Assembly (NCBI GenBank): GCA_023488685.1
Contig: JAMDDR010000084.1
Span: 1,916 to 65,915 of the forward strand
DNA from: Chloroflexota bacterium
GTDB lineage: Bacteria; Chloroflexota; Anaerolineae; J036; Brachytrichaceae
DNA length: 64,000 nt
Direction: 5' to 3'
The position numbers and the translations under genes were made by a program. Numbering within the stretch: position 1 is the stretch's first letter; each line of letters opens with the position of its first letter. This document shows positions 19,016 through 38,712 of this stretch, piece by piece. The notes beneath the pieces were generated by a model. It was not told the DNA's origin and did not search any database. It saw only the letters and a list, made by a program, of their open reading frames with translations.

Positions 19016-21166
19016 CTATTTGATTTCGAACCAGTGTAGCATCAAACTGTTTCCAGCGGCATCGTTGAGCGGGTCGTCGATGGACCGGCGTGTGCCGGAC
19101 GTGCGGTCATAAACGCCGACTCGGACCTGGTACACGCCGGGCTTCAAATTGTCTGGCAAAGCTACCCAATGCGGGTCGGTGACCACCTCGCCCTGTTGCC
19201 AGCGCGAGAAAGGATATGAGCCATACACCGGCTGCTGATCGGCTACCACGATAATTTCACCATTGGATTGGTCGACGATGTGGAGCAGCACAGTGTCATC
19301 CGGTTGCTGCGCTGCGGTGGATTGCCAGTAAAGTTCGACAGCGATCTCTCGTCTAGCCAGATCCACAGCCGCTTTTCCGCCCAGTAACGTCAACCCGCCA
19401 TCGAACACGGCGTTGCGTGTGGCCAGGGTGGGGGAGACCTCAAAGCTGCGAGGTGTGTCTTCAGCCTGGTAGATCACTGTGTTCGGCACCCCGTTACGCT
19501 CATACAATGTTTCCGTGGGGATCAACGTCTTGTGTTGTTTGGCCGCGCTACGTGCGAACACGTCCCAATGCCCTTGGAATGCCGTCGTCTCGGGCGTGTG
19601 AAAGACATAGATGTTCGAAGGATCGCGCAAGAGCACCGTGGAGACATCCGCGAACGTGGGCGATGGTTCCGGCAGATATTCGTACATCTCACGCATGTGC
19701 ACGCGCCCCTCTGTCAGGAACGTGACACTGCGCTCAAAACCCCAGTCCAGCGCAATCACAGGCCGGTTCGCGTAATTCGACTCCAGATCATGGGCGAGTG
19801 TGAAGATGGCATCGGACCACAACCCCCGGCCACCGGTCGTGACCAGGAATGTTTGGATCATCACATTGGTCGCGGTGTGGTTGATAACCAGTATGCCTAC
19901 GCCAACCGATGTGATCACGGCCGCCTGGCGCAGCGACATCCGCTGAGCGAGCCAGGCAAGCATGTCTATGAACGACCATGCGATGAGGAGCCAGGTCAGG
20001 GGTACGATGATGAATAGATGGCGCGCGCCGATGCTGCTGATACTAATCGTCCCCAACGGAATGACGGTGATGACGCACAACAGTAGCAGTAAACGCAGGC
20101 GAACGTAGCGCGGTTGAGCGATATCCGCCGTGGAACTCGTCCTCTGCTCCAGCGAACCTGCCTTGAGAGGTATATCGCTGCGACGACGGATGCATAGCGC
20201 CGCTGTGTAGACCAGGCTGGCGATCAGCGCGAGAGCGCCGAGTGGTAACCCGGCTGGTGCATCGAAGTGCAACGTGTCGCCGCCCAGCATGCGCACAAAC
20301 TCAACCGACTCAAACTGGATATTGCCCAACAGATCGAGGTTGTTATGGCCGTAGGTGCGCGAGCGCACGGCGTTCTCTGAGATGAACTGAAATGAGGCGC
20401 CGGAAGGGATATTGTGCACGATGAATGGCGCAAAGCCAAGGGCGCATGCGCACGCGCACAAGAACAGCGTCTTGATACCGATTGATCGAAGCAGACGCCA
20501 GAAGCCAGGAATGCCCAGGATGAGGATTGCGGTAAGGCCGATCGGCACAACAAGCCAGCTAAAAATCAGCTTCGTGGTCAGGCCCAGGCCAAACACAAAA
20601 GCTGCGGCGATCAGTATTGTGTTGCTGCGCGTGCGCCACCAGCGTGTAAGCAGCAGCAGAAACCCCAGCGCCAATGGCAACAGTGGCTGGGCGAAATGCG
20701 CGCCTGTGCGACTCCACCAGATGTATGCCGGTGCGCTGGCGCACAGGAGAACGGCAATGGCAGCGGTGAGTGGACCGGACCAGGTATGCGCGAGCCACCA
20801 CAGCAGGAAGATCGTGACTGCACCCAATAGCAATTGGCTGGTGCGCAATCCTTGTGTCGTCGTGCCAAACAGCGTCATGCCCACCAGGCTCGTGTAAATG
20901 GAGCTGGGGCCGGTGTAATGGCCCATCATCAAGGGCAGTCGCAATCCGAAGACCGTTACGGTGCTGAATGCGGTCGTCGGAAGGCCGTGGATCAATTCAA
21001 GCGCTGGAACGGCGTCGGCTGCTTCGTCATATTGCAGTCCTGGCAGATCCAGGTTGCTCAGACCAACGGAGAAATAGACCAGGTATGCGATCACCAGAGC
21101 AGTGAGAGCTACTGCGGTCTGCGTTCGTGTATGATTGCGTGCAACGCCCAAATGAGTCTCTACCAA
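19016..21166 (-). CDS. GT-C-fold membrane glycosyltransferase-like protein, class A copy 1 (ArnT/PMT-like) with a C-terminal soluble module
   Basis: 716-aa ORF. A many-TM N-terminal body carries an acidic first-loop motif LQYDEAAD. The soluble C-terminus reads ..ELYWQS..LLHIVDQ..ADQQP..SRWQQGE..YQVRVGVYDRTSG. The start is TTG 21166 or TTG 21151 (no ATG). Confidence 0.65.
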   Translation of the reverse strand: MVETHLGVARNHTRTQTAVALTALVIAYLVYFSVGLSNLDLPGLQYDEAADAVPALELIHGLPTTAFSTVTVFGLRLPLMMGHYTGPSSIYTSLVGMTLFGTTTQGLRTSQLLLGAVTIFLLWWLAHTWSGPLTAAIAVLLCASAPAYIWWSRTGAHFAQPLLPLALGFLLLLTRWWRTRSNTILIAAAFVFGLGLTTKLIFSWLVVPIGLTAILILGIPGFWRLLRSIGIKTLFLCACACALGFAPFIVHNIPSGASFQFISENAVRSRTYGHNNLDLLGNIQFESVEFVRMLGGDTLHFDAPAGLPLGALALIASLVYTAALCIRRRSDIPLKAGSLEQRTSSTADIAQPRYVRLRLLLLLCVITVIPLGTISISSIGARHLFIIVPLTWLLIAWSFIDMLAWLAQRMSLRQAAVITSVGVGILVINHTATNVMIQTFLVTTGGRGLWSDAIFTLAHDLESNYANRPVIALDWGFERSVTFLTEGRVHMREMYEYLPEPSPTFADVSTVLLRDPSNIYVFHTPETTAFQGHWDVFARSAAKQHKTLIPTETLYERNGVPNTVIYQAEDTPRSFEVSPTLATRNAVFDGGLTLLGGKAAVDLARREIAVELYWQSTAAQQPDDTVLLHIVDQSNGEIIVVADQQPVYGSYPFSRWQQGEVVTDPHWVALPDNLKPGVYQVRVGVYDRTSGTRRSIDDPLNDAAGNSLMLHWFEIK

Positions 21167-21168
21167 CG

Positions 21169-23208
21169 ATGAAACCTCGTACTTGCATCGAATTTGCGTT
21201 TCATGGCCGTTCAGTCGTGCTAGGTATCATTCTACTTGGCATCTTTGCACTGTATTCAGGCGCGCTGCGACAGGCGCTCATCTACGATGACCCCGTCAAC
21301 ATCACAGCACTGGCAACCCGCAACATAATCAGCCTATTCGACCTGCATCCCTACGGCACGGGCAACTACCGGCCGATGAGTTTCCTGCCCTGGCTGTTCA
21401 TGCGCGATTGGTTTGGCTGGTTTATCCCCAGCCTGTTGCATGCCTGGAATGTGTGGTCGCACGTACTCAATACAGCGTTGATTGCGTCGTTGGCGTGGCG
21501 ATTGGGTCGTCGTTTCGGCATGCGCAGCACCTTGTTGGCGGTGCTGTGCGGGCTGCGTTTTGGTCTATTTCCATTTTCGTATCAGGCCATTCTATTTGCT
21601 GGCGCCCTGCCACACCCGTTCATGGTCGCATTTGGCCTGGCTGCCGTCCATGCCTATCTGACCGCGCGCGGGCCAGGAAGCAAAGTGCATTTACCTCACA
21701 CGGTGCTGTGGCTGGTATGCATCCTGATGCTGCTCGCGTCCTTACTCAGTCACGAACAGGGCTTTGTATTCGGCGTGTTCATCTTGTTTGCCGATGTCAT
21801 GATCGCGTGGAGTCAGCGAAAGCGCCTGAGCGCCGGCGCATTTGCGGCGTGTGGGATAGCTCTTGCCTATGCGGTTTTCTATCGTCTCTTCATGCAAACC
21901 TATTGGACTGATACGTCGAACTGGGCGACGGGGCCAATGGGGTTATCCGAAATTCTAGCCAACTTTGGCTACCAGGCCCAGGGCCTGGTCTACGGATGGC
22001 TGGTTGCACTGCGCGACTATATCGGATTGCCTGAAAATGGCCAGATCCTCGTCCTTGTGATGCTCGGCGCAACGGCTGTGCTCACCGTGATCAGTTTTGT
22101 GCGCATGCGTTTACTGACCCTGGGTGTCATTACGGCGGGCTGGTGGTTGGTGGCTGTTGCTCCGTCGGTGTTATTGACGTCGCCCAACTATCTGCAGGTG
22201 AGCCCACGGCTCATGTACGTGCCATCCATTGGCGCCAGCCTGTTGCTGGGCATGTTGCTTGTTGCATGGGTGCGGTTGGTACGCCGGCCGTTGTTCCAGG
22301 GGGTCATCATTGCAGCGAGTCTTATCCTGCTGGCCTGGTGCGCGGGTTATATTGCGGATCGGTCGACTGAGAGCGATCATCTGGCAGTGGCGTTCAACCA
22401 GATCGATGCCGATTTGCAGCATTCTGATCCTTCGGCGCAGGTGCTTCTCATCAACCTGCCCTGGTGGAGCATCCCCGCGCGCCCGACATTCCCCATCGGC
22501 GTAGAGAGCATGCCGATCTACCTGGAGGGGGCCATGTCGCCATCTGACTACCTTGGCACCGTCAGTAATACCCGGCGCCAGACGGCACATATCCGGCATG
22601 ATATCTCTCTGACACACGGTGATCGTTACATGTATGGGATTGTAGGCGTGCCGCGGGATGATGCCGCACTGCGTGACGCTATCCTCAAATCGAACTACAT
22701 ATTCCGCTTTGACTATGACGATCCCTGGTTACGCGCGCGCCGATTGGCGATCGTCACTCTGGATCAAGGGGACGATGTTGTTGCCCGGCTGTCTGACGGT
22801 AAGGCACGTGTTATTCTGAGGGCGGCCAGCGCGCGCGCCTGTGAAAACCGTCTCAGGTTGGACTTGATCTGGGCCGATGTGGATAGCGCGGGTGAGTCAT
22901 TGGGTGTCTTTGTGCACGTGCTGGATAAGCAAGGGGCGCAGGTGCTTGCTGCCGATCGTGACCTGTTGGAGGGCTATTTACCCCTTGACCAGGTGCCAGA
23001 TAAGACAAAGGTCGCCGAGACACGCGAGATCGTATTGCCACAGCAGGTGGGTGAGGGGTCGTTTGATGGCCTGGCGGTGAGTGTGGGTGTTTACAACCGG
23101 GCGGACGTGAAGCGATTGGCTGCCGTGCGACAGAACGGCAGTATGTGGGAGGGCGACGCCATAACCGTGCCCGTGCGTGTTGAATCATGCCAAATGCCGT
23201 TCAATTAA
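21169..23208 (+). CDS. GT-C-fold membrane glycosyltransferase-like protein, class B copy 1 (TMTC/DUF1736-like N-terminus) with a C-terminal module
   Basis: LIYDDPVN...YRPMSFLPW...LLHAWNVWSHVLNTALIA, then about 10 TM segments. C-terminus: LDLIWAD..GVFVHVLDKQG..ADRD..VSVGVYNR. ATG 21169 (MKPRT..) aligns with the MTKPR start of its paralogue. Confidence 0.65.
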   Translation: MKPRTCIEFAFHGRSVVLGIILLGIFALYSGALRQALIYDDPVNITALATRNIISLFDLHPYGTGNYRPMSFLPWLFMRDWFGWFIPSLLHAWNVWSHVLNTALIASLAWRLGRRFGMRSTLLAVLCGLRFGLFPFSYQAILFAGALPHPFMVAFGLAAVHAYLTARGPGSKVHLPHTVLWLVCILMLLASLLSHEQGFVFGVFILFADVMIAWSQRKRLSAGAFAACGIALAYAVFYRLFMQTYWTDTSNWATGPMGLSEILANFGYQAQGLVYGWLVALRDYIGLPENGQILVLVMLGATAVLTVISFVRMRLLTLGVITAGWWLVAVAPSVLLTSPNYLQVSPRLMYVPSIGASLLLGMLLVAWVRLVRRPLFQGVIIAASLILLAWCAGYIADRSTESDHLAVAFNQIDADLQHSDPSAQVLLINLPWWSIPARPTFPIGVESMPIYLEGAMSPSDYLGTVSNTRRQTAHIRHDISLTHGDRYMYGIVGVPRDDAALRDAILKSNYIFRFDYDDPWLRARRLAIVTLDQGDDVVARLSDGKARVILRAASARACENRLRLDLIWADVDSAGESLGVFVHVLDKQGAQVLAADRDLLEGYLPLDQVPDKTKVAETREIVLPQQVGEGSFDGLAVSVGVYNRADVKRLAAVRQNGSMWEGDAITVPVRVESCQMPFN

Positions 23209-23933
23209 GTGTATTGTTGCCGGCTTATAACGAAGCCGGCCGGCTGCGCAGTAATCTGTACGAGACCATCCGGACGCTGGAGGGAGCGCCGTCCGTATCG
23301 GCGCAGACGGCATTTCACCCGTTTGAGCTGATCGTGATCGACGACGGCAGCAGCGATGGCACTGCTGCCGCAGCATTGGATGTGGCGCGACAGGACGGGC
23401 GCGTGCGGGTGATGTCATATAAGCCGAACGCGGGGAAAGGAGCCGCGCTGCGACGTGGCTTCGGATGTGCCCAAGGGTCGTTGGTGGCGTTTCTTGACGC
23501 CGATCTGGACCTGCACCCGCGCCTGCTCTTTGTGCTGCAAGATGCGATGCGCACACAACGTGCTGACGTTGTCATCGGTTCGAAACAGCACCCACAATCA
23601 CACATCGATTATCCTCTGTTGCGCCGTGCGTACAGCCTGGGGTACTTTGTGCTGGTCCAGGCGTTATTTGACTTACCCCTGCGCGACACGCAGACGGGTA
23701 TCAAGTTGTTCAAGCGTGAGGTGTTGGACTATGCCTTCCCACGCCTGTCCATTACAGGTTATGCGTTTGATCTTGAGCTGCTGGTGTTGGCGCATACAGC
23801 AGGCTATCGCATTACAGATGCGCCTGTCTCATTGACATCGCAACGAATGAACCGGCGCATTCGCCCGCGGGATGTGATGGTCATGTTGCGCGATACGATC
23901 AACCTGTGGCTGCGCATGCGGGCAAACCGATGA
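23187..23933 (+). CDS. GT2 family glycosyltransferase, polyprenyl-phosphate sugar synthase-like (DPM1/GtrB/ArnC type)
   Basis: 248 aa with SVLLPAYNE, VIDDGSSDGT, GKGAALRRG and LDADLD. It overlaps the end of class B copy 1 by 22 nt. Confidence 0.8.
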   Translation: MPNAVQLSVLLPAYNEAGRLRSNLYETIRTLEGAPSVSAQTAFHPFELIVIDDGSSDGTAAAALDVARQDGRVRVMSYKPNAGKGAALRRGFGCAQGSLVAFLDADLDLHPRLLFVLQDAMRTQRADVVIGSKQHPQSHIDYPLLRRAYSLGYFVLVQALFDLPLRDTQTGIKLFKREVLDYAFPRLSITGYAFDLELLVLAHTAGYRITDAPVSLTSQRMNRRIRPRDVMVMLRDTINLWLRMRANR

Positions 23934-23950: not shown

Positions 23951-26023
23951 TCAACGCTGCTTGATGGCAAGATTCACGCCGTTCTCGGGACTCTTTCCAT
24001 TCTCTGACACATTCACACCCTGGATATCAGGATAGCCATAACTTCCGATGCGGACATAGGCTGGTTCGGAAGGCATCGGGCCGGTGAAGGGAATGTCAAA
24101 CCGTTGCAAAAGATAGTCACCCACACGCCAGGACAACGGGTGGATGCCACTCCCATCAAGCTGGCCGAGTTTCGTGTCTCTGTCGAACAGGTGGTTGTAC
24201 CAGTGATAATCCACATTCTGGGGTGGTTCCTGGAACACGCGCAACACTGTTTCGACGCGCACTGCGTTGTTCACCGCTGAGATGCGGTAATGAGTCAGTT
24301 CGACGCCGCTTTCCCACTGCGCCGGCTGTGTTTGTGTAAAGTCACTCAAGTCGGGCATTTGTTTGACGCGCACGTAAACATAGCCACTGTTTAGCTCTGC
24401 TCGGATTGGTGTCATGCTGGTGATGACGTCGGAGGGTTTCAGGTAACTGAGTAAGCCCGCTAATGTGTTCTCAGTCCCGGGTGCGAAGATGTATGAGGTT
24501 CCTTCTGGCCGGAAGACCCAGCCATCGATATAGCTGTTGAGGAAACGATAAGGCATGTCGGCCAGCACCACCCCCAACAACAGGCCTTGTTCATGCCACG
24601 GCGTGACATAGTCTGGGACGACGACGACAACATCACCGTTAACACCCTCAGCCGCCGCTTGCCTGGCATGTTGGGCAGCTATCCACGCGCTACGCACCGG
24701 TAGTCCATAGCCGCCGTTGCTGGTGTCATGTTGCTCTACAAAATCCGCGAAACGCACCACGGTCGTGCACTGCCACAGGGTGATGACGCCTACCGTCACG
24801 GCTGCAAGCGCGGCGGTGGCTGTGCGTAGCCAGGCAAAGGTTCTCAGACGTGTTGCGTATGCCAGCACGCGATCGACGCCCAATCCCATCAGAATAAACG
24901 GCGCCGGGTAAAGCGGCAGCAGATAGTGCATTTGGATGGGTTGGGAATGTCGCATCTGCATCAATACAGGGATGCACCACCATGCCAGGAGCAACCAGAG
25001 GCCTATCCAGGGCGCACAGTTCCAGCGGCGTACGTGCCGTATGCAGACGACGGCCAGCAGCGGAATGCTGCTGGCAAGTAGGGCGATCTGGAGCGTCTCA
25101 ATCCCATTAAGCATCGCAGGAAGCTGGGCAACCCACATCCCGTAGGCGCCGTCCGTCAGATCACTGAGATGAGTGCCACCACTCTGCCACAGCGCGATGC
25201 GCAACGAGTCCAGGCTGAACGTCGCCTGCGCACCCCCAAAACCTAATATGGCGCGCGCGTTGCCAAACCCTTGTGTCGCGTCGTATCCCAGGTAGATAAT
25301 CGCCAGTGCAGCCAGGGGCAACAACCCCACCAGAGCAGGCATGGGGCGCAGCGTTCGCCAGCCCAGTAACACAGCGACAACCACAATCGGGACCAGATAG
25401 AGTGCAGACAGGTGAGAGCCTGTACACAGCGCCAGCCCCAGCCCCGCGATGGCCCATCCCCACGGGTTGCGGCGCTGCAGTGCCTCAAGCAGGCCGAATA
25501 AAAGGATGGCCGAGAACAACGGTGGTTGCAGGATGCCCAGGTTGCGAGAGAAGTAAACCGCCCAAGGCGCTGTCGCGAATAACAGTGTGGCGATCACCGC
25601 GACGCGCCCGTTGAAGTACCGCACGCACAGCGCCCAACACACTGCCACGGCCAATATGTCGAGCATGGCACGGTAAGCCGTGACGACGATGAAATCGTGT
25701 GTGAGGAGATAGGGCAATGCCAGTGTATACAAGTACACTGGCGGATGATTGGCGACTGAACCACTGTAAGGCGCCATGGACAACCAATGCCCATCTATGA
25801 TATCCAGAGCGAACCGTAGAGACGACGCCTCATCAAATCGCAGGTCTATCAGGTCGAAGCGGTAGAGACGCAGGAACACTGCGATTACAATGATGATGAA
25901 GGCGAGCAGGGGCCTCGCGTGCTTGTGTTTCGATACAGGGGAGATGCTTTGACGCAGACTCGACATGATCTTGAGTATGCCATAGCCCTTGCAAACCTTC
26001 ACAAGGCTGTTAGCTATTAACAC
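23951..26023 (-). CDS. GT-C-fold membrane glycosyltransferase-like protein, class A copy 2
   Basis: 690-aa ORF with first-loop RFDEASS and a many-TM body. C-terminus: VDYHWYNHLFD..GQLDG..LSWRVGDY..YVRIGSYGY. The longest ORF starts at GTG 26023; ATG 25966 (MSSLRQ) is an alternative. Confidence 0.65.
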   Translation of the reverse strand: MLIANSLVKVCKGYGILKIMSSLRQSISPVSKHKHARPLLAFIIIVIAVFLRLYRFDLIDLRFDEASSLRFALDIIDGHWLSMAPYSGSVANHPPVYLYTLALPYLLTHDFIVVTAYRAMLDILAVAVCWALCVRYFNGRVAVIATLLFATAPWAVYFSRNLGILQPPLFSAILLFGLLEALQRRNPWGWAIAGLGLALCTGSHLSALYLVPIVVVAVLLGWRTLRPMPALVGLLPLAALAIIYLGYDATQGFGNARAILGFGGAQATFSLDSLRIALWQSGGTHLSDLTDGAYGMWVAQLPAMLNGIETLQIALLASSIPLLAVVCIRHVRRWNCAPWIGLWLLLAWWCIPVLMQMRHSQPIQMHYLLPLYPAPFILMGLGVDRVLAYATRLRTFAWLRTATAALAAVTVGVITLWQCTTVVRFADFVEQHDTSNGGYGLPVRSAWIAAQHARQAAAEGVNGDVVVVVPDYVTPWHEQGLLLGVVLADMPYRFLNSYIDGWVFRPEGTSYIFAPGTENTLAGLLSYLKPSDVITSMTPIRAELNSGYVYVRVKQMPDLSDFTQTQPAQWESGVELTHYRISAVNNAVRVETVLRVFQEPPQNVDYHWYNHLFDRDTKLGQLDGSGIHPLSWRVGDYLLQRFDIPFTGPMPSEPAYVRIGSYGYPDIQGVNVSENGKSPENGVNLAIKQR

Positions 26024-26069: not shown

Positions 26070-28061
26070 ATGATGATGACGAAACCTCGCGCGCTGAAGC
26101 GCAACCTTCTCATTGCCGGCATCGCATTTGGTGTTTTCGTGTTATACGCACCATCTGTTCGGCTCATGCTTTTTCATGACGACGCGCCTGCCGCGCTCTG
26201 GATGACCGGTTATAACCCGATCAGCATCTTTGCCATGCGTGACGACATTGGCATCGCTGATCGCCCCATGGCCAATGTGCTGTGGGTCTTGACGCGCGAG
26301 TTGTTTGGCTGGTATATCCCGGCCATCACGCACATGTGGAACCTGTGCGCACATGTGCTGAACACCGTTTTGATCGCTGTGTTCGCCATCCGCCTGGGCC
26401 GTCTTTCCGGGTTACACAGCCCCGTATTTCCGCTCATTTGTGCGCTCATCCTGGGCCTTTTCCCCTTCTCTTACCAGGCGATCCTGTGGGCTAATGCGTT
26501 TTACCACCCCCTGGCGGCAATGTGGGGTTTGTTTATGCTGAACGCCTATTGGTTCGCGCGCAGCCGGCGCCAGGCACGCTGGTGGTTGTTGTGTGTCGTA
26601 CTCCTGGGCGCAGCCTGGCTTTCGCATGAGTCGGGCTTTATATTCGGTGTGCTGGTGCTTGGGCTGGAGTTGCTGCAAGTCCTGGTTGCCAGACAGCGTC
26701 CGAGCGTTGGTGCCATCGCCGTGGGTACATTGGGACTCATCTACCCGCTTGCCTACCGTCTGCTTCTGCCTCCAGTGTGGTTTGACGAAGTCGTGACCGT
26801 TGAGTCCGTGGTTTCGAACCTGATCTATTCCATGCAAGGTTTTGTGAGCTGGTTGTTGATCCTGGTTCGCGCACAGATAGGTCTGTCCGATGCAGTTGAC
26901 ACTATCATATTGGTGCTGTTCATCGGTAGTGTGGCGGCGGCGTCGATCTGGCTATTTCGTCAACGGAAGCTTCTTGTAGGCCTGTTTGCGCTGGCGTGTT
27001 GGGCAATCGCAACAGTGCCGTTATTACTGCTGGATACGTCGTACGTGCGTTTCAGCCCACGCTTGCTCTACATCGGTTCGATCGGCATAGCCCTGTTCTG
27101 GAGTATCGTGACGGTTACGCTCCTTGGCGTTATCCGTCGCCCTGGGCTACGAGCCGCCTTCGCAATCGCGCTGGTCGTGCTCTTTGCCTGGTGTGTGCCG
27201 TTTGTGGTTGACCGCCAGAACGAGACCGCCCGCCTCACACCGGCGATGAAATTGATTGATAACGATTTACACACGGCCAGTCCCGATGCGACCGTGCTGC
27301 TCATCAACATGCCGTATTGGAGTGCGCCCGCGTACCCCGCATTTCTCATCGGTTCGGAAGGAATGCCGATCTTTCAAAGCTCCGATACACCGGCCTGGTC
27401 GTGGCTGGCAGCAACCAGCGGAACGTGGCGTGAGATGAGCTACGTGCACCATGATATTTCCTTGACGCGGGGCGATCGCTATTTCTACGGGATCCCAGGC
27501 AAAATCGTCGACGATACGGCGCTACGTGCGCGAATCCTGTCGTCTAACTACACTTATCGCTTTGATTATGACTCGCCAGGGTTGCGTGCGCGCCGCCTGG
27601 CAATCATCGGTACTGACAAGACCACTGCGCCGCCGTTGGCCAAGCTGGCTGACGGTGAGACCAGCGCTGCCCTGCGTGAGGCGCATGCCGCCAGGTGCGC
27701 TGACCGCATCGCGCTTAACCTGACCTGGTCCGACGTGCGCAACATGGCGCAGCCGATAGGCGTCTTCGTGCACGTCTTCGACGAACAGGACCGCCAGGCA
27801 ATCGTGGCCGACCGCGACTTGATCGACGGGTATCTGCCGCTGGACCAGGTTCTGCCGAACGTCGTCATCACCGAGACGCGCGAGGTCACCATCCCTGCCA
27901 ACGTGGCAACAGTGAAGGACATCCGCCTCGGCGCATATCTGCGCTCGGATGGCAAGAGGCTGACAGCTACTCGCTCAGATGGTAGTGCCTGGGATGGCGA
28001 TGCGATCGTTGTGCCCATCCAGCCGGAGGACGAGGATCTGTGCCGCTTACTGGGTCGCTAG
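26070..28061 (+). CDS. GT-C-fold membrane glycosyltransferase-like protein, class B copy 2
   Basis: A clear paralogue of 21169-23208 along its whole length, e.g. FHDDAPA, HMWNLCAHVLNTVLIA, HHDISLTRGDRYFYGI and SNYTYRFDYDSPGLRARRLAII. ATG triplet at 26070-26078; the longest ORF starts at GTG 26055. Confidence 0.65.
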   Translation: MMMTKPRALKRNLLIAGIAFGVFVLYAPSVRLMLFHDDAPAALWMTGYNPISIFAMRDDIGIADRPMANVLWVLTRELFGWYIPAITHMWNLCAHVLNTVLIAVFAIRLGRLSGLHSPVFPLICALILGLFPFSYQAILWANAFYHPLAAMWGLFMLNAYWFARSRRQARWWLLCVVLLGAAWLSHESGFIFGVLVLGLELLQVLVARQRPSVGAIAVGTLGLIYPLAYRLLLPPVWFDEVVTVESVVSNLIYSMQGFVSWLLILVRAQIGLSDAVDTIILVLFIGSVAAASIWLFRQRKLLVGLFALACWAIATVPLLLLDTSYVRFSPRLLYIGSIGIALFWSIVTVTLLGVIRRPGLRAAFAIALVVLFAWCVPFVVDRQNETARLTPAMKLIDNDLHTASPDATVLLINMPYWSAPAYPAFLIGSEGMPIFQSSDTPAWSWLAATSGTWREMSYVHHDISLTRGDRYFYGIPGKIVDDTALRARILSSNYTYRFDYDSPGLRARRLAIIGTDKTTAPPLAKLADGETSAALREAHAARCADRIALNLTWSDVRNMAQPIGVFVHVFDEQDRQAIVADRDLIDGYLPLDQVLPNVVITETREVTIPANVATVKDIRLGAYLRSDGKRLTATRSDGSAWDGDAIVVPIQPEDEDLCRLLGR

Positions 28062-28125
28062 CGACGCGCGCCTAATATAATGCCCCTGTCAGACCGTTTA
28101 TTGGGTTCAAGAGGTGAGGAAAACT

Positions 28126-30118: not shown

Positions 30119-32326
30119 GTGATACTTTCACGCTCCGTCGTTCCCCATGACTCACGCCGATATTCGCGGTTGTTCGTTGCCGGCATTGTGCTGGTTTTCG
30201 TGGCGTTGTGCGTGGCGTACAACGTAGCATTGCCGCTATTTGAGGCCCCCGATGAAGGCGCGCATTACATCTATGTTGACTACATCGCCCGCAACCGCGC
30301 GTTGCCGAGTATGGACGAACTGCCGTCGCACGAGGTGTCACAACCGCCGCTGTACTACGTCCTCAGCGCGCCGCTCATCGCCTGGATCGACCGGAGCGAC
30401 TTCAGTGAGGTATACCGGCCCAATCCCGGTCTGGATAATGGCATTGTCAACGATCATCTGCCGAAAGAACGACAGATGCCGCCCACCGGTGTGACCCTTG
30501 CGCTGCGCATGCTGCGACTTTTCTCAACTGTGCTGGGCGCCATCACAGTCGTCCTGGTGTATGCAACGGTGAAGGTCATGTTCAACAGCGAGGAGGTGGC
30601 GCTGCTCGCGATGGCCGTGACCGCGTTCAACCCCAAGTTCCTCCACATGAGCAGCCAGTTCAACAACGATATTGCGGTGGCCTGTGCGGCGGTGCTGAGC
30701 TTGTGGGTGGGTGTGCGTATGGTCAAACAACCCGGCGCGCCGTCGTGGCTGTCGTTGCTGGCCCTTGGCGCATCGGTTGGGGTGGCGACGGCGACCAAGT
30801 ACAGCGGCATGGCGCTGGCGGCTCCGGCTGCGTTCGTGGTTGCCTGGTGCGCCGTGAGCCAGGGACGGCGTGGGATGGGCACAACGCTGCGGCAAACAGC
30901 ACGTTCCGTTGTGCCGATCTTCCTCAAGTGGGGTGTCATTTGTGTCGTTGGGTTTGCGTTGACTGGGGGCTGGCTGTTGCTCTACAACATGTTACGTTAC
31001 GGTCACCCACTCGCGGCGACGCAGTTCCAACGCGCACACGCCCTCGGCATACGCCCGATCCCCCTTTCCCTGGAAGAAATCCTGGCGCGGCTCCCGAAAG
31101 TGCTCACCAGTTACTGGGGAGAGTTTGGCCACGGTGTGCAGTTCCCGCCCGCCGTCGATACCGTCATGATGGTGATCGCAGGTGTCGTGGCTGTGGGTGT
31201 GGTCATTGCACTGATCCGGCGTGAACTGCCGCAGGAGTTGAGTGTTCTCCTGGTCGTCGGGGTGGTTACCTTTGCCACGTTCATCATCTGGATGCGCAAT
31301 CAGACCGGCACCGAGAACAGCCGTCTGCTTTCGCCTGCATTTGCCGCGGTGTCGGCACTGAGCGCTGCCGGGTTGCTCGCGTGGCTCCCACGGCGTATCA
31401 GGGCGGCCGGAGTGGTGGTGTTGTCGGGGGTGAGCGTCGCCGGCGCGGTTGCCGGTCTCTTTTTATCGTTGATCGCAGGTTATGCGACACCGACCTATTT
31501 AACCGAGCTGGAAATCGCATCATTGCCCTCCCAGGCTGTGGCGCGGTTTGACAATGGTATTGAACTGGTGGCCGCATCCGTCAACCCCAACCGTATCGTT
31601 CCCGGGCATGAGCTTGAACTGAGTGCGTACTGGCGTGCCACGCAACCGATTACCGATGTGTACCGCGCCGTCGTGGAGGTGCGCGACGAACAGAACAGTC
31701 TGATCGGGCGGATGAGCCAGTTGCCTCTTGCCGGCCGGTATGCCACCACGCAGATGGAGGTGGGACGCGTCTTTCGCGACGAGTATCACCTGGAAATCAG
31801 CGCAACATCGCGCAGTGTGGCGCGTGTATTTATAGGTTGGTACCAACAGCGCCCGCCGAACACGGTATCGCACGTACAAGGGAGTGGTGCTGTTGGTGCG
31901 CAGGTCGGTCTGATCAAAGTGCGCGGCGCACAACCTGTCGCCATGATTCCTACGACGCCTTTCAGCAGCACATTCAGCAGTATCGCCGGTCTTGAAGGCT
32001 ATCAAGTGGAGGGTGATACGCTCACGTTATTCTGGCGTAGCCTGGGTGCACCCGCGCAGGATTACACCGTCTTCGTTCACGCGTTGGACCAGAATGGCCA
32101 GATCATCGGGCAGGCCGATGCGCCTATCGCATACCCCATGTCGCTGTGGGATGCGGGCGAGCAGATTGTCGATGAGCATCACGTGAGCGCAATCACTGGA
32201 GCCGCGACGTTGCGGATCGGGCTCTACGATCCGGCAACAGGACAACGCTTGTCCGTTCAGGATGCAGCCGGCACTCCCTGGCCAGACGACGCTGTCGATT
32301 TGCCTGTGGTCAAGGCCACTCCATGA
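30119..32326 (+). CDS. GT-C-fold membrane glycosyltransferase-like protein, class C copy 1 (PMT_2/ArnT-like), C-terminal module duplicated
   Basis: First-loop FEAPDEGAHY and QPPLYY, about 12 TM segments. C-terminal repeats: ELSAYWRAT... and LTLFWRSLGAPAQDYTVFVHALDQNGQ..QADAP..SLWDAGE..LRIGLYDPATGQRL. The start was set to GTG 30119, downstream of the acs hairpin; the longest ORF starts at 30050. Confidence 0.65.
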   Translation: MILSRSVVPHDSRRYSRLFVAGIVLVFVALCVAYNVALPLFEAPDEGAHYIYVDYIARNRALPSMDELPSHEVSQPPLYYVLSAPLIAWIDRSDFSEVYRPNPGLDNGIVNDHLPKERQMPPTGVTLALRMLRLFSTVLGAITVVLVYATVKVMFNSEEVALLAMAVTAFNPKFLHMSSQFNNDIAVACAAVLSLWVGVRMVKQPGAPSWLSLLALGASVGVATATKYSGMALAAPAAFVVAWCAVSQGRRGMGTTLRQTARSVVPIFLKWGVICVVGFALTGGWLLLYNMLRYGHPLAATQFQRAHALGIRPIPLSLEEILARLPKVLTSYWGEFGHGVQFPPAVDTVMMVIAGVVAVGVVIALIRRELPQELSVLLVVGVVTFATFIIWMRNQTGTENSRLLSPAFAAVSALSAAGLLAWLPRRIRAAGVVVLSGVSVAGAVAGLFLSLIAGYATPTYLTELEIASLPSQAVARFDNGIELVAASVNPNRIVPGHELELSAYWRATQPITDVYRAVVEVRDEQNSLIGRMSQLPLAGRYATTQMEVGRVFRDEYHLEISATSRSVARVFIGWYQQRPPNTVSHVQGSGAVGAQVGLIKVRGAQPVAMIPTTPFSSTFSSIAGLEGYQVEGDTLTLFWRSLGAPAQDYTVFVHALDQNGQIIGQADAPIAYPMSLWDAGEQIVDEHHVSAITGAATLRIGLYDPATGQRLSVQDAAGTPWPDDAVDLPVVKATP

Positions 32327-33296: not shown

Positions 33297-35522
33297 TCAT
33301 TTCAGTACGATACTGCCATCAGCCCAGTCGCTCCCATTGGATTTGAGCGCGCGAAAACGCTGGCCTGTGTCTGGGTCATAGACGCCTACCTGGATGGAAG
33401 CGGTCTGCGCTAGACCGGGTACCTCAATACGCTGTTCGAACAGCTCGCCCTGACTCCAATAGGCTGCGGAGTACTCAAAAGGAACATCGTGCTGCCTGGC
33501 GATCTTCTGTTGTGCGTCCAACCCGTGTACAAAGATGGTGTAATTCTTCGCCGGCTCGGTTGTCGCACGCCAGTTCAAGATGACGGTGTCGCTTTCAACG
33601 CGGGCAGACACCAGATCCGCCAGATTTTCCAGTGTAGCGAGCGGCGTTGTGTCGATCGGCGTGGTTGCTTCGGGGCCGCGAACTTTGATCCGCCCAATCT
33701 CAACACTGACGGATGGATTATCGACTGGTCGAATCAACCCCCCTCCATCCAGCCACCAGCCTACCAATATCCGCAAAACCTCTCCTTTACTGGTGTCGGG
33801 CGTGATCTGGTAATTCTCGCGCAACGGCCGGCCCACCTGCCACGCGCGGGGGACATAGCTATAGCGTATGACGGTGCCTGTATTCAGAGCCCCTACGGTC
33901 TTGTCCTGTGAGTTGCGTATGTCCAACATCAGGTGCGCTGAGGTGGTCAAGGGTGTCGTCGTGCGCCACACGACGCTCAATTCGATAGGGGAGCCACTAT
34001 CGATGCGCTGTTTTTGAAGTTGCACATCCAACAGCTCGATCCCATTCTCGAATCTGATCCGCCCGGCATCAGGGCGATTCAAGAGATTGCGCGCTTCGGC
34101 TTCATTTAAGTACTGTGGAAAGGCGTACATCTCGTTCAGCGAATCGTAAAGAGTGACCGATGTGAATAGACCATATACGACGGTCACGAACACGGCGAAT
34201 CCCTTTTGCCAGCGCTTCGGCACGAACACCAATATACCCATGGCAATCAGCAGGGTAATGGGGATGTACATGGGTGAGAAGAAGCGCATATTCTGCGTCG
34301 AATCGCGCGAGCTCATCCAGGAATAATAGGTGATGATGTTCACCACGATTGCGGCTAGCATTGGCCAGTAGGCAGCGCCCAGCCTACGCCGTACCATCAG
34401 CCATACCGCGCCTGCTATACCCACCAGAAACACGGCGTACATGAACTCGTTGTGCCGGTTAGGCCAGGTGAAGATGAAGCCCGGGTGTGCAAAATAGCTC
34501 TTTAAGATGAACGGCAACCATTCCAATGTGTTTTGCAGCGTGCGTGGTGTTGTCAGGTTGGCCGGGTTCATCTCGTTGACCCGATTCCATGCCAGGAGGT
34601 CGCCGTAAAGTTGCCAGTTGTGCACGAAGTAAGCGCCGGTGACTAGCAAGGCGCCTGCGGCTAATAACGCGCCGTTGAGGAACAGCCACCTCAATGAATG
34701 CCGCGATCGGATCATGCGCACGAGGATGGCAAATGCGGCGGCAACCACGACGACCCCGCCGCTATATTTCGTCAACAGCGTCAAACCAGCCAGTATCCCC
34801 AACAGAAATGAATGAGTGAACGGTGGCTCTTTCTCCGTTAAGGTGAAATGGACAACCAATAGGAGTGTCAGTGCTGCCATGCACCCGACTGCCATGTCGT
34901 TCGAAATGGCGCCGCTGAGCACCAGGTTACGCGGGTTGAACGCCAACAGTGTCGTTGTGAGCACGGCAATTTCGGCTCGCCGGGTCAATTTGAGGGTGAT
35001 GTAATACGCGCAGATGACGACGACGGCTCCCATCAGCACCGTGGCAAAGCGTACGAGGTGCCCGGCCAACACCTGGCCGGTGCCCAGGCTCCCGTCATCG
35101 CTGGGTAAGTAGTTCCCGTACATCCCGTTGGGTGCGCCACCTTGTAAGAGCACTTGCTCTTGCATCAGGTCGCCTCGCGGGATCAACGCAACCAACCGGC
35201 CCATGAGCATGTAATACAACGGCGGTTGGGTCGCTTCATGGGTCTGCCAATAGGGCGCGGCGCTATCGCCAGTGGTGAAGTGCTTGTTCAGGTTGGGCAG
35301 CGGGCGGCCGAGTGCGTAATGCTCCACATATGCGTAGTGCCAGCCCTCATCTGCCCCCTGATAGAGCGGTGTTTTGAGGCTGACCATGACTCCCAGCACG
35401 ACGAAGATGCCGGTTATGGCCCAGGCGAGAATGGGTGAGGCCACTACGAGCGCGTTAGCGCGCGTGAACCAGTGGCTAACGGTATGTGAGGTTGCTGCCA
35501 GCGATGGGTGACCGGTTCGCAT
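33297..35522 (-). CDS. GT-C-fold membrane glycosyltransferase-like protein, class C copy 2
   Basis: 741 aa with YQGADEGWHY and QPPLYY. C-terminal repeats: IELSVVWRTT... and VILNWRATTEPAKNYTIFVHGLDAQQ..RQHD..AYWSQGE..IQVGVYDPDTGQRF. Confidence 0.65.
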   Translation of the reverse strand: MRTGHPSLAATSHTVSHWFTRANALVVASPILAWAITGIFVVLGVMVSLKTPLYQGADEGWHYAYVEHYALGRPLPNLNKHFTTGDSAAPYWQTHEATQPPLYYMLMGRLVALIPRGDLMQEQVLLQGGAPNGMYGNYLPSDDGSLGTGQVLAGHLVRFATVLMGAVVVICAYYITLKLTRRAEIAVLTTTLLAFNPRNLVLSGAISNDMAVGCMAALTLLLVVHFTLTEKEPPFTHSFLLGILAGLTLLTKYSGGVVVVAAAFAILVRMIRSRHSLRWLFLNGALLAAGALLVTGAYFVHNWQLYGDLLAWNRVNEMNPANLTTPRTLQNTLEWLPFILKSYFAHPGFIFTWPNRHNEFMYAVFLVGIAGAVWLMVRRRLGAAYWPMLAAIVVNIITYYSWMSSRDSTQNMRFFSPMYIPITLLIAMGILVFVPKRWQKGFAVFVTVVYGLFTSVTLYDSLNEMYAFPQYLNEAEARNLLNRPDAGRIRFENGIELLDVQLQKQRIDSGSPIELSVVWRTTTPLTTSAHLMLDIRNSQDKTVGALNTGTVIRYSYVPRAWQVGRPLRENYQITPDTSKGEVLRILVGWWLDGGGLIRPVDNPSVSVEIGRIKVRGPEATTPIDTTPLATLENLADLVSARVESDTVILNWRATTEPAKNYTIFVHGLDAQQKIARQHDVPFEYSAAYWSQGELFEQRIEVPGLAQTASIQVGVYDPDTGQRFRALKSNGSDWADGSIVLK

Positions 35523-35575: not shown

Positions 35576-36277
35576 TCAACGACGCTTCCCAAAGATCCGT
35601 AGCAGCCGGATAAACAGGTTGATGAAATCAAGGTACAGGGCCAATGCGCCGATCACGGCAGCCTTGCGTTGTGCGTCGCCATCCTCGCTCACGCCGTAGG
35701 CCATGCGCTTGATGCGTTGGGTGTCGTAGGCGATCAATCCGACAAATACGATGACGCCCACAAAGGTTAATACCCAGTACAGCCCGCTGCTGTTTAAGAA
35801 GAAGTTGACGAATGACGCCAGGATGATGCCAATGAGTCCCATGAACAGCAAATTGCCTATGCTGGTCAAGTCGCGTTTGGTAACGTAACCGTAGGCGCTG
35901 ACCAGGGCAAATGTCCCGGCTGTGATCAAGAAGACCTGTGCGATGGATTCTGTGGTGTAAACGTAGAACAGCAGCGCGAACGTGATGCCTGTCAGTGCCG
36001 AATAGACGATGAACAAACCAGTGGCCACGCCTGCGTTAAGCTTGCCGATCGCCGCGCTGAGGACGACCACCAGCACCAACTGTGCAATGACGATGCCCAG
36101 CAGGAGGGGTGTGCCGGCGATGGCTGTGATGAAGTCCGGGTTGGTTGCTGTTGCATAAGCCACCAGGCCGGTGATGGACAAAGCCAGTGCCATCCAGCCA
36201 TACACTTTGGTGATGAAATTGCGCTCAACTGCCTGATCGACCACGATATTGGATTGACTGACGCTGAAACGATTCAT
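35576..36277 (-). CDS. Bax-inhibitor-1/YccA family membrane protein
   Basis: 233 aa from ATG 36277 (MNRFSVSQ...) with FITKVYGWMALAL, seven hydrophobic segments and the basic tail RLLRIFGKRR. Confidence 0.75.
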   Translation of the reverse strand: MNRFSVSQSNIVVDQAVERNFITKVYGWMALALSITGLVAYATATNPDFITAIAGTPLLLGIVIAQLVLVVVLSAAIGKLNAGVATGLFIVYSALTGITFALLFYVYTTESIAQVFLITAGTFALVSAYGYVTKRDLTSIGNLLFMGLIGIILASFVNFFLNSSGLYWVLTFVGVIVFVGLIAYDTQRIKRMAYGVSEDGDAQRKAAVIGALALYLDFINLFIRLLRIFGKRR

Positions 36278-36289
36278 GAAATACCTCGT

Positions 36290-36345
36290 GAAATATGCAA
36301 CCGAAATATGCAACCATACCCAGCCATACCCAGCCATACCCAGCC
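36290..36345. repeat. compound tandem repeat: 13-mer x2 followed by 10-mer x3
   Basis: GAAATATGCAACC x2 (36290-36315), then ATACCCAGCC x3 (36316-36345). All copies are perfect. The array lies in the spacer between class C copy 3 and the BI-1 gene. Confidence 0.9.
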
Positions 36346-36393
36346 AGCGCCCGGAATGCGGGTTTTGATGAAGGGAGGCGTTCTACTGCGTGC

Positions 36394-38712
36394 CTATTTG
36401 ATGCGCAGTCGTATCATCTCAATCTCCGTGTTGATGTATTGACCGCTCTCGTCGTAGGCACCCAAGCGTGAAAAATCCTTGGGAGAGTATAGCACCAGCA
36501 ACAAGCGATAAACGCCTGGTGATGCGTCAGCATTGATTTGCAGGATATGGGGATCAATAATGACCTGGCCAGGGATCCAGGAGGACGTTGGCGCATTCCC
36601 CTCAACCGGTGTTGAATCGTGCTGGGCGACCTTATTGGCCTTGTCATCCAGGAGTTGCAGTGACACCGTATAGTCATCCCCAATCTTGCGTTCCGTGCGC
36701 CAACGTAGTGTCACGGTCATGGCTGTACCGGGGCCTGCGCTGCGAGGTTGAACATCATAGCTGGTCAGGCTAATTCCATTGTCATAATTTAGTAGCGCTA
36801 TTGGGCTTTGGGCAAACGGTACCAGTTCAGCCTGACCGAACACAATACCCTGTTCACTATCTGTGCCGTGTGTCACGGTTAAACGTTGCCCTGTTTGTAG
36901 GTCATACAGGCCCACTGCCCATCGCAACCTCTGTGGCGCGAGTGTTAGGTGAGGAACGCGCGCAGCATAATGATCCGTCCAGCGATAGCCGGGTGATAAC
37001 TCGCTTGTCGCCAGAGAGCCCTGACCGGGGTACATATCACGCTGGGCGACGATGACATCATCCTCGTTGATCAGGTGGACAAATACACTGTAGTTGTCCG
37101 GTAGCGGCTGGCGTGCGTGCCAATACAAGCGTACGGTTGCCTCGTCCCCCGGCTCGACAGATGGTGTTAGCAGATCGTAACCGATCAGATCGAGTCCATC
37201 GCCAAACGTGATGTCAAGCGGATGGGAGGGGGAGACATTCGTGGGAGCAGGTTGCGCATAGGCAGACATGATGATCGCGAATGGTACAGACACCGCAAGC
37301 ACGATCAAACCGGCGCTCGCAACCCATAGCACCGTGCGATGGATATGGTATAGCCCGAACGCAAACCATGCGGCAATGACGGCGATGCAGGGGAACATGA
37401 GCCTGCCCTGTGACGCGGGCGTGAGCGAGGTCCATCGCACCAGTGCAGCGAACGTAATGGCTACCCACGCGGCACTGATGACGAGTGCTGCATGGCGAAT
37501 GAGGAGCGGCTGGTCTTGCCCCGGCGTTGGATATTCTTGCCCGGTCTTTCGTCTCAAAATCGCCCAAACCGCGCCGGCAGATGCCATGACGGCAGCCCCA
37601 TTTAGAACATCGTAAACCAGCGGTGGCATGATGACGTTGAGTGTGCCAAACACTCCCCAATAAGCCCAGACAAAGCCCTCACGCTCACTCCATAGCTGTG
37701 CCAGTGAGGCGGGGGGGGCACGCCGGCCAACGACATCCAGGAATGCGCTCCATCCTAATGGATCACCGTATAACTGTTGGTTACGTATGAACCACCAGCC
37801 CGCGAGGATGGCCGTAACGGCAATAACGATCAGGATGAAACGCGCCATCCGCGCTATCAGGCCGAGGACACTCCCACCTGGGCGCAATGTGTAATGTTTA
37901 AATCCTGCGAATAACGTGGATAGCGCAAGCAATCCGATAAGGCCCAGCGTGCTCGATTTACTGAGTGCGGCCGCCGCTGTGATCAAGCCCGCTATGAGCG
38001 CCGCGCGGATGGATAGATCGGCGCGCCGCGCTGTGTGTAATGCCCACCACAGTCCCAGGGTTCCGAACATGGCAGCGGCGTTGTCATTATTAACTGAACC
38101 GCTGATAAACGCGAACATGGGGATGAATGCTGTAAAGACCATCGTGCCGAGGCGTATAAAGGCACCCTGATCAGTTGGAAGCGAGGCTGCGCCTGTATTG
38201 GAATTGAGTGTGCGGTCACCACCACCAATTCTTGGAAATAGCTCACACGCTACCAGGTAAGCGAAGAATACCGTCGCGGTGGAGAACAGGACAGAGACTA
38301 ACCGTGCCAGGTGGACGGCCAGCGTCGCGCGTGTCCAGGGGAATTGCTCGGCGGTAGTGTGGAGGATGGCGTTGGCGTTGCCATCGCGCGTCGGCTGTCC
38401 CATGTCGCTGTGTGGGTTGATGCGACGGATCTCCTGCCAGTTGGACGAGTCAACCGGGCCGCTGACGAGGGCCGCAACGGCATAATAAAAGGGAGGTTGG
38501 CTGCCTTCCTGCCGCCAGGGCGCATCCTCGTCGCTCTGATCGCGGCGCTGTTCGGGCAGCGAACCAGTCGTTGCCAGATGGCGGACAAGCGGATAGTGCC
38601 ATAGCTCGTCCGAAGCCTCGAACAGGGGAGTCGCTATGCTGTATAAGCTGAAGAGAAGCAGCGCCGCCACGAGCAGCAAGGCCGCACTGACTCTCTCGGC
38701 GCGCACACTCAC
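36394..38712 (-). CDS. GT-C-fold membrane glycosyltransferase-like protein, class C copy 3
   Basis: 772 aa with FEASDELWHY and QPPFYY. Two clear C-terminal modules: ATVRLYWHARQPLPDNYSVFVHLINEDD..AQRD..WAVGLYDLQTGQRL, and MTVTLRWRTERKIGDDYTVSLQLLDDK..AQHD..SSWIPGQ..YRLLLVLY. The start overlaps the upstream gene's stop by 4 nt. Confidence 0.65.
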   Translation of the reverse strand: MSVRAERVSAALLLVAALLLFSLYSIATPLFEASDELWHYPLVRHLATTGSLPEQRRDQSDEDAPWRQEGSQPPFYYAVAALVSGPVDSSNWQEIRRINPHSDMGQPTRDGNANAILHTTAEQFPWTRATLAVHLARLVSVLFSTATVFFAYLVACELFPRIGGGDRTLNSNTGAASLPTDQGAFIRLGTMVFTAFIPMFAFISGSVNNDNAAAMFGTLGLWWALHTARRADLSIRAALIAGLITAAAALSKSSTLGLIGLLALSTLFAGFKHYTLRPGGSVLGLIARMARFILIVIAVTAILAGWWFIRNQQLYGDPLGWSAFLDVVGRRAPPASLAQLWSEREGFVWAYWGVFGTLNVIMPPLVYDVLNGAAVMASAGAVWAILRRKTGQEYPTPGQDQPLLIRHAALVISAAWVAITFAALVRWTSLTPASQGRLMFPCIAVIAAWFAFGLYHIHRTVLWVASAGLIVLAVSVPFAIIMSAYAQPAPTNVSPSHPLDITFGDGLDLIGYDLLTPSVEPGDEATVRLYWHARQPLPDNYSVFVHLINEDDVIVAQRDMYPGQGSLATSELSPGYRWTDHYAARVPHLTLAPQRLRWAVGLYDLQTGQRLTVTHGTDSEQGIVFGQAELVPFAQSPIALLNYDNGISLTSYDVQPRSAGPGTAMTVTLRWRTERKIGDDYTVSLQLLDDKANKVAQHDSTPVEGNAPTSSWIPGQVIIDPHILQINADASPGVYRLLLVLYSPKDFSRLGAYDESGQYINTEIEMIRLRIK

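Follow-up and report, generated by a model that had tools for sequence, protein, structure and literature searches.

The window analysed here is a stretch of 64,000 nucleotides from a Chloroflexota bacterium (contig JAMDDR010000084.1), within which about 20 kb of this Thermoflexales-like genome carry seven membrane glycosyltransferase genes together with one gene for a lipid-sugar synthase. The seven proteins are GT-C-type, and the locus is a lineage-specific variant of the known polyprenyl-phosphate-sugar/GT-C kind of extracytoplasmic glycosylation. The original prediction, made from the letters of the DNA alone, had listed seven open reading frames (ORFs) sorted into three classes, A, B and C, by the first loop after the first transmembrane (TM) helix, along with their motifs and an overlapping gene of the GT2 type; the ORF list and the translations confirm every one of these ORFs and motifs in its place. 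The genes are as follows.

19016-21166, minus strand: A1, 716 aa, a PMT_2-type GT-C enzyme with one C-terminal beta-sandwich domain (CTD).
21127/21169-23208, plus strand: B1, 693/679 aa, a class B protein of predicted GT-C fold, with a TM body, an alpha/beta domain and a CTD.
23187-23933, plus strand: GT2, 248 aa, polyprenyl-phosphate-sugar synthase-like, without a TM anchor.
23951-26023, minus strand: A2, 690 aa, a PMT_2-type GT-C enzyme of a subfamily separate from A1, with a divergent CTD.
26055/26070-28061, plus strand: B2, 668/663 aa, the second class B protein of predicted GT-C fold.
28114-30045, plus strand: acs, acetyl-CoA synthetase, between B2 and C1.
30050/30119-32326, plus strand: C1, 758/735 aa, a PMT-like GT-C enzyme with two CTD copies.
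33297-35522, minus strand: C2, 741 aa, a PMT-like GT-C enzyme, paralogue of C1, with two CTD copies.
36394-38712, minus strand: C3, 772 aa, a divergent class C GT-C enzyme with two CTD copies.

NCBI starts B1 at 21169, under the name hypothetical protein, and C1 at 30119, under the name glycosyltransferase family 39 protein. All seven glycosyltransferase genes are intact, full-length ORFs. By hydropathy, each product has 9-11 TM segments, the last of which ends between residues 385 and 482, a soluble tail of 230-290 aa, and an N-terminal tail that is mostly basic or very short. An acidic motif directly follows the first TM segment in every case: LQYDEAAD in A1 and RFDEASS in A2; LIYDDPVN in B1, with YRPMSF and HAWNVWSHVLNTALIA; LFHDDAPA in B2, with RPMANV and HMWNLCAHVLNTVLIA; and FEAPDEGAHY (C1), YQGADEGWHY (C2) and FEASDELWHY (C3) in class C, where QPP(L/F)YY is also present. 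The translation of the GT2 gene contains LLPAYNE, VIDDGSSDGT and DADLD. When all six-frame ORFs of the window were searched with phmmer and with a hidden Markov model (HMM) of the CTD, no further GT-C or CTD copy was found.

The expectation that all seven proteins are of the GT-C type has held, by three different routes: four of them through the Pfam models PMT_2 or PMT, C3 through its homology to C1, and the class B pair through their predicted fold. Using the Pfam gathering cut-offs (26.1 bits for PMT_2, PF13231; 22.7 for PMT, PF02366; 30.1 for DUF2142, PF09913), PMT_2 is matched by C1 at 56.5 bits, A1 at 38.5, C2 at 34.9 and A2 at 33.2, with B1, B2 and C3 below the cut-off. PMT is matched by C2 (50.0 bits) and C1 (45.1), in both over part of the model only, the stretch matched being positions 61-243 of 245; C3, A1, A2, B1 and B2 lie below its cut-off. 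There is no ArnT (GT83) family among the NCBIfam matches, which include weak Agl23 matches for A2 and C1 only. The MIR domain of Pfam is matched by none of the proteins, none of the seven contains, by regular expression, a WWD or WWDYG-like motif of the oligosaccharyltransferase (OST) kind, and single-sequence searches of the PDB with B1, C1 and A1 gave nothing useful.

The three-class scheme is weakened. When the TM bodies are compared by hhalign, C1/C2 and C3 are joined with a probability of 100%, A2 pairs with class B (90%) and A1 with class C (80-84%), while A1 and A2 are left at 8%; by BLASTP these two share 28% identity over 227 aa (E = 4e-4). Class A dissolves into two unrelated subfamilies. 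As judged by sequence, this pattern divides the seven genes into four subfamilies or more, A1 and A2 with one gene each, B with two and C with three. The acidic residues of the first loop are kept in the orthologues of every group, as they should be if the prediction is sound. Among related loci, which are designated here by numbers with the prefix L, the A1 orthologues keep DE after the first TM segment and are 65% identical in L003/L004, and the A2 orthologues (L006, L007 and L011) carry FD(E/Q).

In class B, B1 and B2 are 40% identical to one another (BLASTP E = 1e-162), and neither is matched by any Pfam or NCBIfam model. The family is rare, with 24 proteins among 5.8 billion, none of which has a functional name and which are annotated as hypothetical protein at most; the closest genomes in which it occurs are Thermoflexales metagenome-assembled genomes (MAGs) of the class Anaerolineae. 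PMT_2 is passed by only two of 25 class B proteins, both of them distant members. A search of the PDB with a class B profile gave no solved relative by sequence, so that structure prediction was needed. The AlphaFold (AF2) model of B1, built from 25 homologues (pLDDT 87, pTM 0.86), contains about 11 TM helices, followed by an alpha/beta domain (residues ~433-550) and a beta-sandwich (~551-686). The 14 best PDB fold matches of this model by Foldseek are all GT-C proteins (STT3, ArnT, ALG12, AftD, PglB, AftA and EmbB), with E-values from 3e-6 for STT3, the best, to 3e-3 (ArnT, 3e-5) and with low global template modelling scores (TM-scores) of 0.26-0.37. Given these fold matches and the absence of model matches, class B is predicted to have a GT-C fold that current sequence models do not recognise.

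Within class B (n = 25), D54, R82, P83, H105, N108 and N115 are invariant, and D55 and H112 are present in at least 90%. The original prediction had likened these proteins to the TMTC/DUF1736 type without its TPR tail. The tail is indeed missing, with no TPR match, but the resemblance itself has no HMM support: at E <= 0.1, DUF1736 and TPR are matched neither by B1 and B2 nor by 23 relatives (0/25), and membership of class B in TMTC/DUF1736 was rejected. Class B splits into five orthogroups or more, and a locus carries between 1 and 6 copies. B1 itself is an orphan whose identity to any relative does not exceed 45%, in a cluster where A1, C1, C3 and GT2 have orthologues of 60-65% identity. B2 belongs to an orthogroup of 50-52% identity, which includes the class B gene that follows GT2 in L003, L004 and L009 and the lone class B gene of L006. 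Distant class B members are singletons in unrelated contexts. In two distant Anaerolineae, L015 and L020, mutL, whose product was confirmed as MutL by Pfam, is immediately followed by the class B gene. This adjacency (L015 8033-9865, L020 8015-9916 and probably L016 8042-9865) is conserved and is unrelated to glycosylation.

In class C, C1 shares 30% identity with C2 (E = 2e-103) and 28% with C3 by BLASTP, and the homology of C3 to C1 is seen at E = 1.5e-48 by phmmer. C3 reaches 14.8 bits with DUF2142, below the gathering cut-off of 30.1 bits, and its membership in that family was rejected; some distant class C relatives do carry a precomputed DUF2142 match. D68, E69 and H72 are invariant in 33 class C homologues. 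The C3 orthologue in L005 is 61% identical and conserves the FEASDE..HY motif; C2 is missing at the corresponding position in L005/L036.

The soluble tails of these enzymes had been described as just that, and soluble they are; in addition, however, they contain a homologous domain, clear in six of the seven proteins and marginal in A2. All-against-all BLASTP confines the similarity that crosses the classes to the last ~100 residues, and an iterated domain HMM defines a CTD of about 115 aa in ten copies, counting that of A2: one each in A1, B1 and B2, two in tandem in each of C1, C2 and C3, and the weak one. Their positions are given below.

19019-19375, minus strand: CTD of A1 (domain HMM, E = 1e-34).
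22819-23184, plus strand: CTD of B1, with the Cys pair C572/C688.
27675-28028, plus strand: CTD of B2 (domain HMM).
31580-31924 and 31982-32317, plus strand: CTD pair of C1 (domain HMM).
33678-34019 and 33300-33623, minus strand: CTD pair of C2 (domain HMM).
36823-37173 and 36397-36753, minus strand: CTD pair of C3 (domain HMM).
23960-24283, minus strand: weak and divergent CTD of A2 (E = 7e-4 after iteration; missed by the seed HMM).

The CTD has no Pfam model match of its own, yet it is widespread. A profile of the ten copies finds 25,345 proteins at E <= 1e-3 and 16,167 at E <= 1e-10 among 1.84 billion cluster representatives. The best matches are proteins of ~1000 aa with three tandem copies, the matches that bear a name are Chloroflexota, and the N-terminal bodies of the sampled proteins are PMT_2, PMT, TMEM260-like (DUF2723), PTPS_related/YfhO or DUF2142. 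Standalone CTD proteins were not found: the short matches begin within the last TM helix, as if the gene calls had been truncated. The AF2 model of the domain, given for the A1 copy, has a pLDDT of 85 and folds into a seven-strand beta-sandwich. The PDB fold that it matches best is the O-antigen carbohydrate-binding domain of Aquifex Wzt (E = 7e-3, TM-score 0.57), followed by the lipid-binding sandwiches of MD-2/NPC2 and by GH2 Ig-like domains. A Cys pair is conserved in the class B copies, which fits a location outside the membrane. GT-C enzymes that carry C-terminal carbohydrate-binding modules (CBMs) are known, among them EmbC, AftD and ORF12 of GT136 (PMC3044687, PMC11127046); these precedents make a role in acceptor binding plausible, and by analogy with them the CTD would most plausibly position or bind the acceptor.

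The single GT2 gene overlaps the 3' end of B1 by 22 nt, and its product matches PF00535 (Glycos_transf_2) at E = 1.7e-26. Its seven best solved sequence relatives are chains of GtrB, PfDPMS and ArnC. A profile of 29 homologues aligns with PfDPMS at 6e-27 over positions 3-222 of 245, with GtrB at 8e-25 (positions 4-169) and with ArnC at 5e-23 (3-174); GT2 enzymes with other acceptors align with the nucleotide-binding half only, up to about position 120. D104 and D106 of the DxD motif are invariant in the 29 homologues. The earlier assignment of this gene to the polyprenyl-phosphate-sugar synthases is thus borne out by a profile whose alignment with Dol-P-Man synthase, GtrB and ArnC is full-length, and the protein is, on sequence grounds, of the DPMS/GtrB/ArnC type. 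NCBIfam matches that span most of the protein are PpgS, AglJ and a dolichyl-phosphate hexose transferase, but every match falls far short of its equivalog cut-off (the best are EpsD, 61.9 bits against 370, and PpgS, 51 against 370), so the product of GT2 is given no sugar name. By hydropathy there is no TM segment in GT2, in contrast to the two C-terminal TM segments of GtrB/ArnC and the four of PfDPMS; the C-terminus is a basic helix. Polyprenyl-phosphate GT2 enzymes without an anchor include human DPM1 and the catalytic domain of mycobacterial Ppm1. At ~50% identity the GT2 family is widespread in several phyla, and the idea that it is always found beside GT-C genes was rejected, since two contexts are otherwise. 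In another Chloroflexota MAG (L038 6001-9270 and L039 1765-5034), a homologue of 51% identity is followed on the same strand by an overlapping gene for a B12-binding radical SAM protein and then by a DUF362 gene, a setting unlike the GT-C one of the window.

Comparison with related genomes indicates how far the arrangement is maintained. In the loci of close relatives (L003/L005, which lie on one 2.9-Mb ENA contig, L004, L009 and L036), the order is acetyl-CoA hydrolase, A1, one to four class B genes, GT2, two class B genes, acs, C1, ThuA, BI-1, C3, a small ORF, CoaD and RecG. The orthologues of A1, C1, C3 and GT2 are 60-65% identical in these relatives, GT2 lies inside the class B array in all five loci, and A2 and C2 are absent from these contigs. 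L006 and L007 contain A1, A2, one class B gene, C1 and C3, and the partial locus L008 contains one class B gene, C1 and C3. Genes of the B, C and PMT_2 families are still adjacent in L010-L013, so that these families stay together in Thermoflexales-like MAGs (L006-L013) despite rearrangement. Co-clustering extends to more distant Anaerolineae (L015, L016, L020, L028 and L031), and Ardenticatenaceae and other Anaerolineae have arrays of 3-6 GT-C paralogues, one of which, in L015, includes a short GT2 gene. The GT-C genes are therefore clustered in relatives and not scattered, and the grouping of their subfamilies has been conserved. The interleaving with acs, ThuA and BI-1, which the original prediction had called atypical, is instead lineage-local synteny: L010 has five contiguous GT-C genes without any of the three.

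We consider it probable that the locus encodes a lineage-conserved set of extracytoplasmic GT-C enzymes that depend on lipid-linked sugars, that GT2 supplies at least the class B enzymes, and that the acceptor is an envelope glycoconjugate. In this process, GT2, translationally coupled to B1, would be a membrane-peripheral polyprenyl-phosphate-hexose synthase, which charges polyprenyl phosphate from a nucleotide sugar at the cytoplasmic face of the membrane. The lipid-sugar would then be flipped by a transporter (none is present among the scanned flanking genes) and would serve as donor for at least the class B enzymes. In each enzyme, which would have an N-in polytopic body, the acidic motif of the first outside loop (DE, DD or DE..H) would hold the catalytic site, and the protein would end outside the membrane in one or two CTDs (marginal in A2). 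Several distinct GT-C enzymes could in this way add sugars at different positions or in different linkages of the envelope glycoconjugate. By analogy with the Mpt/Emb/Aft enzymes of the Corynebacteriales, the acceptor is more likely to be a glycan of the cell wall or one anchored to lipid.

A number of results weigh against this interpretation, beginning with the donor. The clusters L006/L007, syntenic in other respects, lack GT2; no copy turned up in the partial locus L008 or at the greater distance of L010-L013; and its ~50%-identical homologues elsewhere are, in the two contexts examined, not beside GT-C genes. Nothing therefore supports a link of this donor to A1, A2 or class C, and the proposal that one donor feeds all seven enzymes is weakened, given that GT2, where present, is always among class B genes. 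A Pfam scan limited to about 20 of the longer flanking ORFs, from 5.5 to 52.4 kb, gave no GtrA, SMR, MATE, Wzx, ABC exporter or nucleotide-sugar gene, in agreement with what had been noted before. For the CTD there is no fold match below E = 1e-3, so that glycan binding is just a suggestion made by its predicted structure; moreover, among class B paralogues the mean identity of the CTD (48%) is no lower than that of the TM body (46%), so there is no sign that the CTD alone carries specificity. For class C, the profile has a single significant solved relative, yeast Pmt1 (E = 2e-4), and this speaks for a protein acceptor in that class. Finally, a search of the literature on GT-C arrays and envelope glycans of Chloroflexota/Anaerolineae found nothing relevant.

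The limited reach of GT2 opens the way to a different account, in which the seven genes do not form one pathway but are independent GT-C enzymes brought together by tandem duplication and inherited gene order. In such a case GT2 would serve class B only, and the others would use other donors, possibly polyprenyl-diphosphate-linked oligosaccharides, in the manner of ligases or OSTs. This account would expect a GT2 whose ties are to class B alone and which the cluster can do without, and likewise the interleaved housekeeping genes (acs, ThuA, BI-1, CoaD and RecG), the variable number of class B copies (1 to 6, in at least five orthogroups), the distant class B singletons in unrelated contexts, and the position of STT3 as the top fold match of B1. 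Nevertheless, the co-clustering of B, C and PMT_2 genes survives rearrangement and is found in distant Anaerolineae with different interleaved genes, no protein has a WWDYG-type OST motif, and the common CTD suggests a common type of acceptor. We regard this account as possible but doubtful.

A second alternative keeps the lipid-linked sugar and changes the acceptor. In a multi-acceptor system of protein O-glycosylation, class C, and perhaps other enzymes, would use polyprenyl-phosphate-hexose to place a hexose on Ser/Thr residues of proteins that are secreted or lie in the membrane, for example those of an S-layer or sheath, much as the actinobacterial Pmt and the streptococcal GtrB/PgfM systems do, and the CTDs would bind protein substrates. 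The passage of C1 and C2 over the PMT cut-off and the match to Pmt1 speak for it, and the D-E-x-x-H-(Y/F) motif of the first loop of class C recalls the loop-1 motif of PMT. Protein glycosylation by a GT2 and a GT-C enzyme is, in addition, established in streptococci (PMC12041528). Yet the substrate-binding domains MIR and TPR are missing, no gene for a Ser/Thr-rich secreted protein is evident in the locus, the best fold matches of the CTD are carbohydrate- or lipid-binding sandwiches, and seven enzymes in four subfamilies exceed the known bacterial O-mannosylation systems. As an explanation of the whole locus it is unlikely; a protein acceptor for the PMT-like class C enzymes is a serious possibility. 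That some paralogues are catalytically dead or have become scaffolds, transporters or flippase-like proteins, as the orphan status of B1 (<=45% against 60-65% for A1, C1, C3 and GT2) and the Q that replaces the E of FDE in A2 orthologues might hint, is very improbable, since all seven ORFs are intact and none has lost the acidic motif of the first loop or any other residue that is invariant in its family.

Several neighbouring genes deserve mention. B2, acs and C1 lie on the same strand with very short gaps, and the position of acs is kept in close relatives and not in L010; given its absence from the GT-C array of L010, acs is probably not part of the glycosylation system. An acetyl-CoA hydrolase/transferase gene (17634-18935, minus strand) flanks A1, and its position, too, is kept in close relatives and not in L010. 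A tie of these two genes to glycan O-acetylation is conceivable at most. The sole transporter near the cluster is encoded by an MFS gene (13419-14813, plus strand), ~4 kb upstream of A1 and in the same relative position in L003; it is a candidate for the lipid-sugar flippase. An ORF at 14677-15771 (plus strand) begins inside the 3' end of the MFS gene with the Cys-rich stretch CCVCCQPCCSCC, probably has its real start downstream, and has no Pfam match. Between CoaD and C3 lies a small coiled-coil-like ORF (38709-39392, minus strand), also without a Pfam match, whose stop shares 4 nt with the start of C3 and which may be co-translated with C3; a gene of ~180 aa occupies the equivalent place in L005/L036. 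RecG (39841-42636, minus strand, 931 aa) has a low-complexity N-terminal extension of ~240 aa, rich in Pro/Ala/Ser/Thr/Gln, before the wedge domain, and the protein is also long in relatives (909-912 aa). Lastly, an adenylosuccinate synthetase ORF (51359-52366, minus strand) has 335 aa only and matches the 416-position Pfam model in two stretches; the gene may be truncated or frameshifted, or the protein an unusually short form.

Two points are new: a GT-C family, class B, that is without a model, and a widespread CTD that is without a name. Class B is annotated by NCBI as hypothetical protein and is missed by current HMM libraries. The CTD marks GT-C enzymes of several families, and a model of it would better annotate thousands of proteins. 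GT2 and class B together offer a compact set for the pairing of donor and transferase. The established mechanism of lipid-linked extracytoplasmic glycosylation is not challenged. Envelope glycan biosynthesis in Chloroflexota is largely uncharted. A more far-reaching proposal can be offered tentatively, as one we hold to be less than probable: class B would be a previously unrecognised GT-C family, restricted to Anaerolineae and a candidate for a new CAZy family; together with the anchorless synthase and the enzymes of the A and C types, it would assemble a lipoglycan of the envelope or a glycan of the wall peculiar to this lineage, as a Chloroflexota counterpart of mycobacterial lipomannan/lipoarabinomannan (LM/LAM) or arabinogalactan assembly, and the CTD would be a general and so far undescribed acceptor-binding module of bacterial GT-C enzymes.

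Among known systems, the protein O-mannosyltransferases (GT39) resemble class C in that C1 and C2 pass PMT, in the profile match to Pmt1 and in the DE of the loop-1 motif. They differ from it in that the PMT match is partial, there is no MIR domain, and two CTDs follow the TM body; the activity of class C is predicted. The likeness of class B to TMTC/DUF1736 is limited to the GT-C fold and, by eye only, to an acidic DD followed by the RP...H..N..H..N pattern, and it is offset by the failure of the DUF1736 and TPR models. The carbohydrate-binding domain of Wzt (PDB 8dky, 6o14) is a beta-sandwich of a size similar to that of the CTD (TM-score 0.57-0.59), but the match is at E = 7e-3 with 16% identity, and the Wzt domain lies in the cytoplasm, joined to an ABC ATPase rather than to a GT-C enzyme.

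The closest formal system is the three-component Gtr/Arn type (PMC11127046), and the closest functional analogy the Mpt/Emb/Aft sets of the Corynebacteriales. As in the three-component systems (GtrA/GtrB/Gtr*, ArnC/ArnEF/ArnT, CsbB/GtcA/YfhO and GT136), a GT2 synthase adjoins a GT-C gene and the first loop carries an acidic motif; ORF12 of the GT136 systems, moreover, has a C-terminal CBM (PMC11127046), a point of likeness to the CTD-bearing enzymes here. In contrast to these systems, there is no flippase among the scanned flanking genes, the GT2 of the locus has no counterpart of the C-terminal pair of TM helices in GtrB/ArnC, the GT-C genes number seven instead of one, and the locus is unattached to an O-antigen or teichoic acid locus. 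The mycobacterial and corynebacterial sets consist of MptA/B/C, PimE and Pmt, fed by Ppm1, and of EmbA/B/C and AftA-D, fed by decaprenyl-phosphate-arabinose. Among the mycobacterial donor synthases, the catalytic domain of Ppm1 and PpgS are short and anchorless. The present locus belongs to a different phylum, its seven enzymes have no sequence-level membership in Emb, Aft or Mpt, and its CTD is not the CBM of EmbC, which lies outside the top 50 CTD fold matches. Nonetheless, the fold matches of B1 include AftD, AftA and EmbB, and the mycobacterial sets, as would hold here for at least class B, have one lipid-monophosphate-sugar pool for several GT-C paralogues, partly in tandem (embCAB), several of which carry C-terminal beta-sandwich CBMs (PMC3044687, PMC11127046).

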